Shown here piece after piece: positions 19,083 through 20,165 of a stretch of 64,000 nt of DNA. A program made the translations under genes and the position numbers. Source of the stretch: Escherichia coli (GTDB lineage Bacteria; Pseudomonadota; Gammaproteobacteria; Enterobacterales; Enterobacteriaceae); assembly GCF_003334785.1 (NCBI RefSeq), contig NZ_QOWV01000001.1; one strand, written 5' to 3'. Every line of letters starts with the position of its first letter. Within the stretch, counting starts at the first letter, position 1. Under the pieces are notes generated by a model, which worked only from the letters and a program-made list of their open reading frames with translations, was not told the DNA's origin and did not search any database.

Positions 19083-20165
19083 ATGGCTCAGCTTTCGTTA
19101 CAACATATTCAAAAAATCTACGATAACCAGGTGCATGTGGTGAAGGACTTCAACCTGGAAATTGCCGATAAAGAGTTCATCGTGTTTGTCGGCCCGTCGG
19201 GCTGCGGTAAGTCGACCACCCTGCGCATGATTGCCGGGCTTGAGGAGATCAGCGGCGGCGATCTGTTGATCGACGGCAAACGAATGAATGACGTTCCAGC
19301 CAAAGCACGCAATATAGCGATGGTGTTCCAGAACTACGCGTTGTATCCGCATATGACGGTTTACGACAACATGGCGTTTGGTCTGAAGATGCAAAAAATC
19401 GCCAAAGAGGTGATTGATGAGCGGGTGAACTGGGCGGCGCAAATTCTCGGCCTGCGTGAGTACCTGAAACGTAAGCCGGAGGCGCTTTCCGGCGGGCAAC
19501 GTCAGCGAGTGGCGCTTGGGCGGGCGATTGTACGCGAAGCGGGCGTGTTTTTAATGGATGAACCGCTCTCTAACCTTGATGCCAAGCTGCGCGTGCAAAT
19601 GCGCGCAGAGATCAGCAAGCTGCATCAGAAACTGAACACCACCATGATCTACGTGACCCACGATCAGACCGAAGCGATGACCATGGCGACGCGGATTGTG
19701 ATTATGAAAGACGGGATTGTTCAGCAAGTAGGTGCGCCGAAAACCGTTTATAACCAACCCGCGAATATGTTTGTTTCCGGATTTATTGGATCACCAGCGA
19801 TGAATTTTATTCGCGGCACGATCGATGGCGATAAATTCGTTACGGAAACGCTTAAATTAACCATTCCCGAAGAGAAATTAGCGGTTCTGAAAACACAGGA
19901 AAGTTTGCATAAGCCCATCGTGATGGGAATACGACCGGAAGATATTCATCCGGACGCGCAAGAGGAAAATAACATTTCCGCCAAAATTAGCGTGGCAGAA
20001 TTAACCGGTGCGGAATTTATGCTCTACACCACGGTTGGGGGGCACGAGTTAGTGGTCCGTGCTGGTGCGTTAAATGATTATCATGCAGGAGAAAATATCA
20101 CTATTCATTTTGATATGACGAAATGTCATTTCTTTGATGCAGAAACGGAAATAGCAATTCGCTAA
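19083..20165 (+). CDS. ycjV: ABC transporter ATP-binding protein (MalK-like), full length here
   Basis: 360 aa ORF with Walker A GPSGCGKST, ABC signature LSGGQRQR, Walker B FLMDEPLSNLD and C-terminal regulatory domain. Confidence 0.85.
   Translation: MAQLSLQHIQKIYDNQVHVVKDFNLEIADKEFIVFVGPSGCGKSTTLRMIAGLEEISGGDLLIDGKRMNDVPAKARNIAMVFQNYALYPHMTVYDNMAFGLKMQKIAKEVIDERVNWAAQILGLREYLKRKPEALSGGQRQRVALGRAIVREAGVFLMDEPLSNLDAKLRVQMRAEISKLHQKLNTTMIYVTHDQTEAMTMATRIVIMKDGIVQQVGAPKTVYNQPANMFVSGFIGSPAMNFIRGTIDGDKFVTETLKLTIPEEKLAVLKTQESLHKPIVMGIRPEDIHPDAQEENNISAKISVAELTGAEFMLYTTVGGHELVVRAGALNDYHAGENITIHFDMTKCHFFDAETEIAIR

Follow-up and report, generated by a model that had tools for sequence, protein, structure and literature searches.

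The ycjV locus of Escherichia coli raises the question of whether a gene listed as a pseudogene in the K-12 reference is broken or whole in the species, and of what an unbroken copy says about the strain that carries it. The locus was found in a window of 64,000 nucleotides (the whole stretch of contig NZ_QOWV01000001.1, assembly GCF_003334785.1, that was analysed here). A first-pass annotation of this window had reported a complete MalK-like ATPase and, taking K-12 to carry ycjV as a pseudogene with a separate C-terminal fragment, had proposed that the window holds the functional allele and, together with the missing Rac prophage, points to a non-K-12 background. An intact ycjV is already known: the pseudogene pair of K-12 is annotated, and the full-length protein, represented by an accession and by thousands of genome copies, has been tested biochemically. 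The only two points of this analysis that are mildly new are a rare substitution of glycine by glutamate at residue 133 (G133E), beside the ABC signature, and a scatter of lesions of independent origin across the ycj genes of K-12-like strains.

Reading frame, domains and family of YcjV

The coordinates of ycjV, of the motifs in its product and of the other features of the window are collected in Table 1. All the motifs of an ABC transporter nucleotide-binding domain (PF00005) were found in the translation, including a Q-loop glutamine (Q83) and the D-loop SNLD at residues 163-166. In an alignment of 44 YcjV homologues, with members of 50-61% identity, these motifs were located on invariant or nearly invariant columns, the invariant residues being G37, P38, S39, G40 and K43 in the Walker A motif, S136 and G138 in the signature, D159 and E160 in the Walker B motif, and H193. 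The Pfam search assigned residues 21-162 to ABC_tran (E-value 2.3e-31), residues 236-288 to OB_MalK (6.5e-14) and residues 282-351 to TOBE_2 (9.8e-10). In the alignment-based AlphaFold2 model of the protein (mean pLDDT 93.4, pTM 0.89) the C-terminal beta domain is complete, and its strands extend as far as residue 352. The reading frame, the Pfam domains and the alignment thus confirm the complete ATPase of 360 amino acids, with all its nucleotide-binding motifs and a C-terminal regulatory domain, that had been reported for this position.

Table 1. Position of ycjV, its sequence motifs and the other features of the window.
Feature	Position	Strand	Basis or remark
ycjM-N-O-P-Q-R-S-T-U, same cluster, upstream of ycjV	8479..19069	+	tblastn of MG1655 proteins
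ycjS (D-glucoside 3-dehydrogenase in K-12)	15095..16149	+	two frames; 1-bp deletion, A5 to A4, at 15399
Shine-Dalgarno-like AAGGA	19072..19076	+	6 nt 5' of the ycjV ATG; read from the sequence
ycjV CDS	19083..20165	+	ATG start, 360 codons plus stop; ORF finder
Walker A/P-loop GPSGCGKS, residues 37-44	19191..19214	+	translation
ycjV codon 133, GAG (Glu)	19479..19481	+	two residues ahead of LSGGQ
ABC signature LSGGQ, residues 135-139	19485..19499	+	translation
Walker B VFLMDE, residues 155-160, followed by D-loop SNLD	19545..19562	+	translation
H-loop histidine H193	19659..19661	+	invariant alignment column
C-terminal regulatory domain (OB_MalK + TOBE_2), residues 236-360	19788..20162	+	Pfam
G6 homopolymer in ycjV (G5 in K-12)	20037..20042	+	pairwise alignment
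Residues 321-360, main-frame part lost in K-12	20043..20162	+	K-12 ORFs, model
ompG, outer-membrane porin, intact, 301 aa	20210..21115	+	directly downstream of ycjV
ycjW, LacI-family repressor of the cluster, intact, 332 aa	21226..22224	-	ORF, tblastn
60-aa ORF corresponding to K-12 ymjC	28943-29125	-	
Perfect 25-bp tandem duplication in ycjY (TTAAGGCTGCGCAAAGTAGCGTAAC x2)	29440-29489		splits the gene into ORFs of 237 and 122 aa
Empty IS5F site, single-copy 4-bp target CTAA	34328-34331		alignment of the window with MG1655
ttcA, complete 311-aa ORF	48102..49037	-	unoccupied Rac attachment site

The protein is a paralogue of MalK and not MalK itself, because its score with the NCBIfam MalK equivalog model NF008233 was 430.1 bits, below the cut-off of 568. 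With the UgpC model NF008653, on the other hand, residues 1-356 scored 483.9 bits, above the curated cut-off of 432; this model describes a subfamily and is not an equivalog, and the genomic context of ycjV is a glucoside/guloside cluster and not ugpBAEC. The E. coli MalK protein belongs to the same family and shares with YcjV the domain layout and the OB_MalK plus TOBE regulatory domain. In the structure database, YcjV was matched from end to end, and the best match was Bacillus subtilis MsmX (6YIR; 499 bits, E-value 5.5e-149), followed by AlgS and then by archaeal and E. coli MalK (338 bits for the latter).

MsmX, with about 64% identity over the full length, has the same arrangement of RecA-like, helical and C-terminal barrel domains. 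Its C-terminal domain (residues 236-365) is described as a mixed barrel in which 11 strands are combined with 3 helices, and the limits of this domain match those found in YcjV (236-360). However, the residues D77, R104, E110 and K154, proposed as the signature of multitask MsmX-like ATPases (Leisico et al. 2020), are not conserved, YcjV having N77, Q104, V110 and G154 at these positions, and YcjV does not replace MsmX in an msmX-null strain of B. subtilis (PMC7658222). Moreover, ycjV is not an orphan gene and is clustered with permease genes of its own.

The ycjN, ycjO and ycjP genes, which code for a binding protein and two permeases, are intact and lie 7-9 kb upstream of ycjV on the same strand. 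Together with the regulatory beta-barrel that follows the nucleotide-binding domain, this arrangement is that of the MalK/UgpC/MsmX-type (CUT1) systems, from which we infer that YcjV is the nucleotide-binding subunit of a YcjNOP-type CUT1 sugar importer. A YcjV dimer would power the importer formed by the YcjN binding lipoprotein and the YcjO/YcjP permease and encoded in the ycjM-ompG cluster. In such a system, two YcjV subunits would dock on YcjO/YcjP, ATP would be sandwiched between the Walker A motif of one subunit and the LSGGQ motif of the other, and closure of the dimer would drive YcjO/YcjP from the inward- to the outward-facing state, while the C-terminal barrels would hold the dimer together and may receive regulatory input.

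The K-12 allele and the G run across E. coli genomes

In the annotation of MG1655 (NC_000913.3) the locus is described as two pseudogenes, ycjV (b1318, 1380821-1381789) and ymjB (b4524, 1381789-1381902), located between ycjU and ompG, so the first-pass annotation was correct on this point. The locus and its neighbours are the same in the window. A pairwise alignment of the window gene with the corresponding stretch of 1082 bp in MG1655 revealed identity in 1081 of the 1083 aligned columns, and only two differences: the run of six G residues, which has five in K-12, and an A at gene position 398 that is a G in K-12 (A398G), so that codon 133 reads GAG (Glu) in the window and GGG (Gly) in K-12.

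The single G missing from the run is the origin of the K-12 pseudogene pair. The frame shifts past Gly320 and continues to a product of 322 amino acids ending in ...TTVGGTS*, which is devoid of the last 40 residues of YcjV, and ymjB is a separate GTG-started frame corresponding to the last 37 codons of the intact gene. K-12 therefore has no intact frame of 360 codons, and the window, with G6, does not carry the K-12 pseudogene allele. According to the YcjV model, the 40 missing residues make up about the last third of the regulatory barrel and contain strands 321-328, 338-343 and 349-352; the loss removes 31 residues of the TOBE_2 match, which spans 70. A literature search on ymjB returned no informative paper. 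In K-12 engineering, ycjV serves as a neutral "pseudogene locus" for integration.

The distribution of both alleles was determined in 5,426 complete E. coli genomes, by means of queries of 60-61 nt that had the G run at their centre. Of the 4,995 genomes bearing ycjV, 4,413 contained an exact copy of the G6 61-mer, including those of O157:H7, BL21(DE3), ST131 and ATCC 8739, so the intact gene is present in at least 88% of the ycjV-bearing genomes. The G5 60-mer of K-12 was found exactly in 369 of the genomes searched; the five records sampled from this set (ER1709, MG1655, TG1, an experimental-evolution line and one without source information) are described as laboratory or K-12-type strains. 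These counts establish the intact frame as the normal, ancestral state of ycjV in E. coli, and the K-12 lesion as specific to its lineage. At ycjV it is K-12, and not the strain of the window, that is the exception, and the intact gene alone tells little beyond the fact that it is not the K-12 allele. The state of the G run may be used as a simple strain marker.

In about 424 of the 5,426 complete genomes ycjV was not matched at all, and in a few others only the last 22% of the gene remains, annotated as "TOBE domain-containing protein"; some lineages have thus lost or truncated ycjV by deletion.

One exception outside the laboratory strains was ECO12, a clinical isolate from urine (Seoul; locus L008, 10917-12209 and 19829-20910), which carries the same G5 frameshift as K-12. 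Its haplotype includes the W168* mutation in ycjN, which is not found in K-12 and is common to the G6 strains EJN001 and B20159 (loci L013 and L009, 1989-3281). Because this haplotype is unlike that of K-12 and is linked through ycjN W168* to G6 strains, the G5 run of ECO12 has arisen either by separate slippage or through an error in assembling the homopolymer.

Strain background

The window was collinear with positions 1361738-1445000 of MG1655, at 99.89-99.96% identity. Over about 59 kb, the two sequences differed by 22 SNPs and by two changes of length, a 25-bp duplication in ycjY and a 1-bp deletion in ycjS. MG1655 carries IS5F at 1396044-1397238, flanked by duplicated copies of the CTAA target that is present once in the window. 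The whole Rac prophage is also absent: the 43-bp core of its attachment site, at 48988-49030 within the intact ttcA gene, matches both Rac ends of MG1655, and the 3' end of ttcA is identical to the displaced ttcC remnant of K-12, differing at 3 positions from the Rac-borne copy. The G6 run, the empty IS5F site, the unoccupied Rac site and the 22 SNPs show that the strain, a very close phylogroup-A relative of K-12, is not K-12 itself. The non-K-12 background proposed for the window was thus well founded. The absence of Rac and an intact ycjV are nevertheless uncoupled characters, since ECO12, with its G5 frameshift, is likewise devoid of IS5F and Rac. EH09-18-41, isolated from a rectal swab in Laos, was closer to the window than K-12, differing over 48 kb by 9 SNPs and 1 indel; no genome identical to the window over 24 kb was found in the E. 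coli genome collection.

Taken together, these data make it highly probable that the window frame is the ordinary, ancestral-length ycjV of E. coli, coding for the MalK-type ATPase of the YcjNOP importer, in a strain near K-12, and that K-12 has lost one G. Three other accounts of the intact frame have been considered. A single-base difference in a G run is a classic site of error, and either the G6 of the window or, conversely, the G5 of K-12 could be a homopolymer artefact of sequencing or assembly, as the G5 of ECO12, on its different haplotype, might indeed be. Such an artefact is almost inconceivable as the explanation for the window, and is effectively refuted by the population counts, since each state of the run was found exactly in hundreds or thousands of assemblies, those with G6 being independent, and the reference annotation has the K-12 pseudogene as a curated entry. 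The presence of G5 on two haplotypes (K-12, and ECO12 with ycjN W168*) would also be compatible with recurrent slippage, in which case the G tract would act as a phase-variable (contingency) switch, turning ycjV on and off through slipped-strand mispairing. However, by the standard of contingency loci six G form a short tract, no G7 class is evident, and the strong predominance of G6 over G5, with laboratory or K-12-type strains in the five G5 records sampled, makes this mechanism very improbable, and it was rejected.

The full collinearity, the 99.9% identity with MG1655 and the precise absence of IS5F and Rac would also be expected if the window came from an engineered or reduced-genome K-12 derivative, free of prophages and insertion sequences, in which ycjV had been repaired. 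This origin has next to no probability. The SNPs are scattered and accompanied by the ycjY duplication and the ycjS deletion, the 3' end of ttcA is the native copy and not the one borne by Rac, and natural isolates such as EH09-18-41 are closer to the window than MG1655; the SNP pattern and these closer isolates refute a laboratory derivation. The ordinary ancestral gene in a natural relative of K-12 is thus retained as the preferred explanation.

The ycj cluster and residue 133

The products annotated in MG1655 for this cluster are glucosylglycerate phosphorylase (ycjM), a binding protein (ycjN), two permeases (ycjO and ycjP), guloside/glucoside dehydrogenases and an epimerase (ycjQ, ycjR and ycjS), kojibiose phosphorylase (ycjT), beta-phosphoglucomutase (ycjU) and the porin OmpG (ompG). 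The ycjW gene is divergent to ycjMNOPQRSTUV-ompG, and ycjV is located near the end of the cluster, before ompG. By tblastn, all the upstream genes from ycjM to ycjU were full length in the window except ycjS, which is split into pieces of 106 aa (15095..15415) and 251 aa (15394..16149). Because of this frameshift, the window strain has a whole transporter ATPase gene but probably an incomplete pathway. The ycjS frameshift allele was present in just 2 of about 4875 genomes, JKHS016 and AST198, and in the latter it is labelled "frameshifted" by PGAP.

A GGGGGAA-GGCA-TTCCCCC hairpin, identical in MG1655, was observed at 20171-20188, in the interval that separates ycjV from ompG. It was rejected as a terminator, as no T-run follows on the + strand, and a scan for promoters and terminators around ycjV gave counts no better than those of shuffled sequences.

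The annotation of the cluster was read in nine genomes, chosen in even steps down the ranking of ycjV identity or as the best match. Among the five nearest to K-12, three carry one lesion each, a stop in ycjN in EJN001 and B20159 and a frameshift in ycjO in C9 (L010), and the cluster is intact in the remaining two, 5735 and EH09-18-41; it is also intact in four more distant genomes, KV7, PEC1012, GPEC1405 and Nissle 1917. AST198 (L005) has an internal stop in ycjM and another in ompG in addition to the ycjS frameshift. In these nine genomes together with K-12, ECO12, AST198 and the window, at least five different inactivating events are found in K-12-like strains. In a survey of this size, small and partly chosen, such a scatter raises the tentative possibility that selection on the ycj cluster is relaxed or fluctuates in the K-12-like clade (ST10-type, phylogroup A) and that the cluster is decaying there by many independent single hits. 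If this were the case, the K-12 ycjV pseudogene would be one instance of a clade-wide trend and not a laboratory accident, and the rare G133E change may belong to the same drift of the cluster.

The YcjV protein of the window corresponds to WP_000057955.1, and its gene is identical to the annotated copies in EH09-18-41 and AST198. The protein of BL21(DE3), WP_000057985.1, has the same frame and the same length of 360 amino acids and differs only in having Gly133 in place of Glu133; it is annotated also in strains B20159, C9, EJN001 and 5735. Exact 61-mer searches revealed the Glu133 allele in 108 genomes versus 1,483 with the Gly allele, and the mismatch counts to both queries imply that B2 strains have G at the variable nucleotide of codon 133. 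Outside the sublineage of the window, this codon was GGG or GGC (Gly) in 10 loci from 9 genomes. Glutamate is therefore a derived minority allele, as glycine is found elsewhere and predominates among the exact matches. In 122 signature motifs drawn from the 150 best family representatives, position 133 was occupied by K (76), R (17), A (12), S (7), G (4), N (3), T (2) or D (1), a basic residue being found in 93 of them (76%), and glutamate in none.

The Gly133 protein of the BL21 type is reported to build up in the cell in stable form and to keep its ATPase activity (PMC7658222). A basic side chain at this position is not essential, because the ancestral E. coli protein with Gly133 is active. 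A literature search on the function of the counterpart of this residue in MalK, Lys132, returned nothing relevant, and no discussion of the residue (K133) was found in the MsmX paper.

The question of whether the window allele works may then be answered in two ways. The Glu133 protein is expected to be active and to work with YcjNOP. Nevertheless, an acidic residue is unusual at this position and could alter the activity, and it has been considered that the frame is intact but the allele functionally weakened, with the pathway, given the ycjS frameshift, being lost and not kept working. Such weakening might come from the acidic side chain two residues ahead of LSGGQ, in the helical subdomain, which shuts over the ATP of the partner subunit. 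The rarity of glutamate in E. coli and its absence from the 122 homologue motifs speak for a weakened allele, as do the occurrence of the ycjS frameshift in two more genomes, which likewise have Glu133 or further lesions, and the independent lesions in ycjN, ycjO, ycjM and ompG of other K-12-like strains. However, the usual basic residue was already missing from E. coli YcjV while the ancestral Gly133 protein hydrolysed ATP, and the Glu133 allele is found in 108 genomes of varied hosts, so that it is not obviously deleterious; a weakened allele is thus regarded as unlikely. What stands of the functional allele announced for this window is the uninterrupted frame, and its function is a reasonable expectation that has to be read with the rare G133E change and the ycjS frameshift in mind. 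Both G133E and the scatter of ycj lesions would bear on whether the pathway is dispensable in the K-12-like clade.

The "pseudogene locus" of K-12 corresponds to a live gene in the majority of E. coli, and work on the ycj pathway in K-12 (kojibiose, glucosylglycerate and guloside metabolism) has been carried out in a background without the full-length transporter ATPase. A passage in a secondary source (PMC8009128) places ycjV among the genes that affect bovine gut colonisation by EHEC.

Further lesions were observed downstream of the cluster. In K-12 and most genomes ycjY has one copy of the 25-bp unit and encodes an intact protein of 306 aa, and in the close relative EH09-18-41 the gene is marked as "frameshifted" by PGAP. 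The counterpart of ymjC in the relatives is annotated by PGAP as a truncated pseudogene of an "NAD-dependent dehydratase", and in its place the more distant KV7, PEC1012 and Nissle strains have a full SDR oxidoreductase gene, with an additional alpha/beta hydrolase gene in KV7 and PEC1012.
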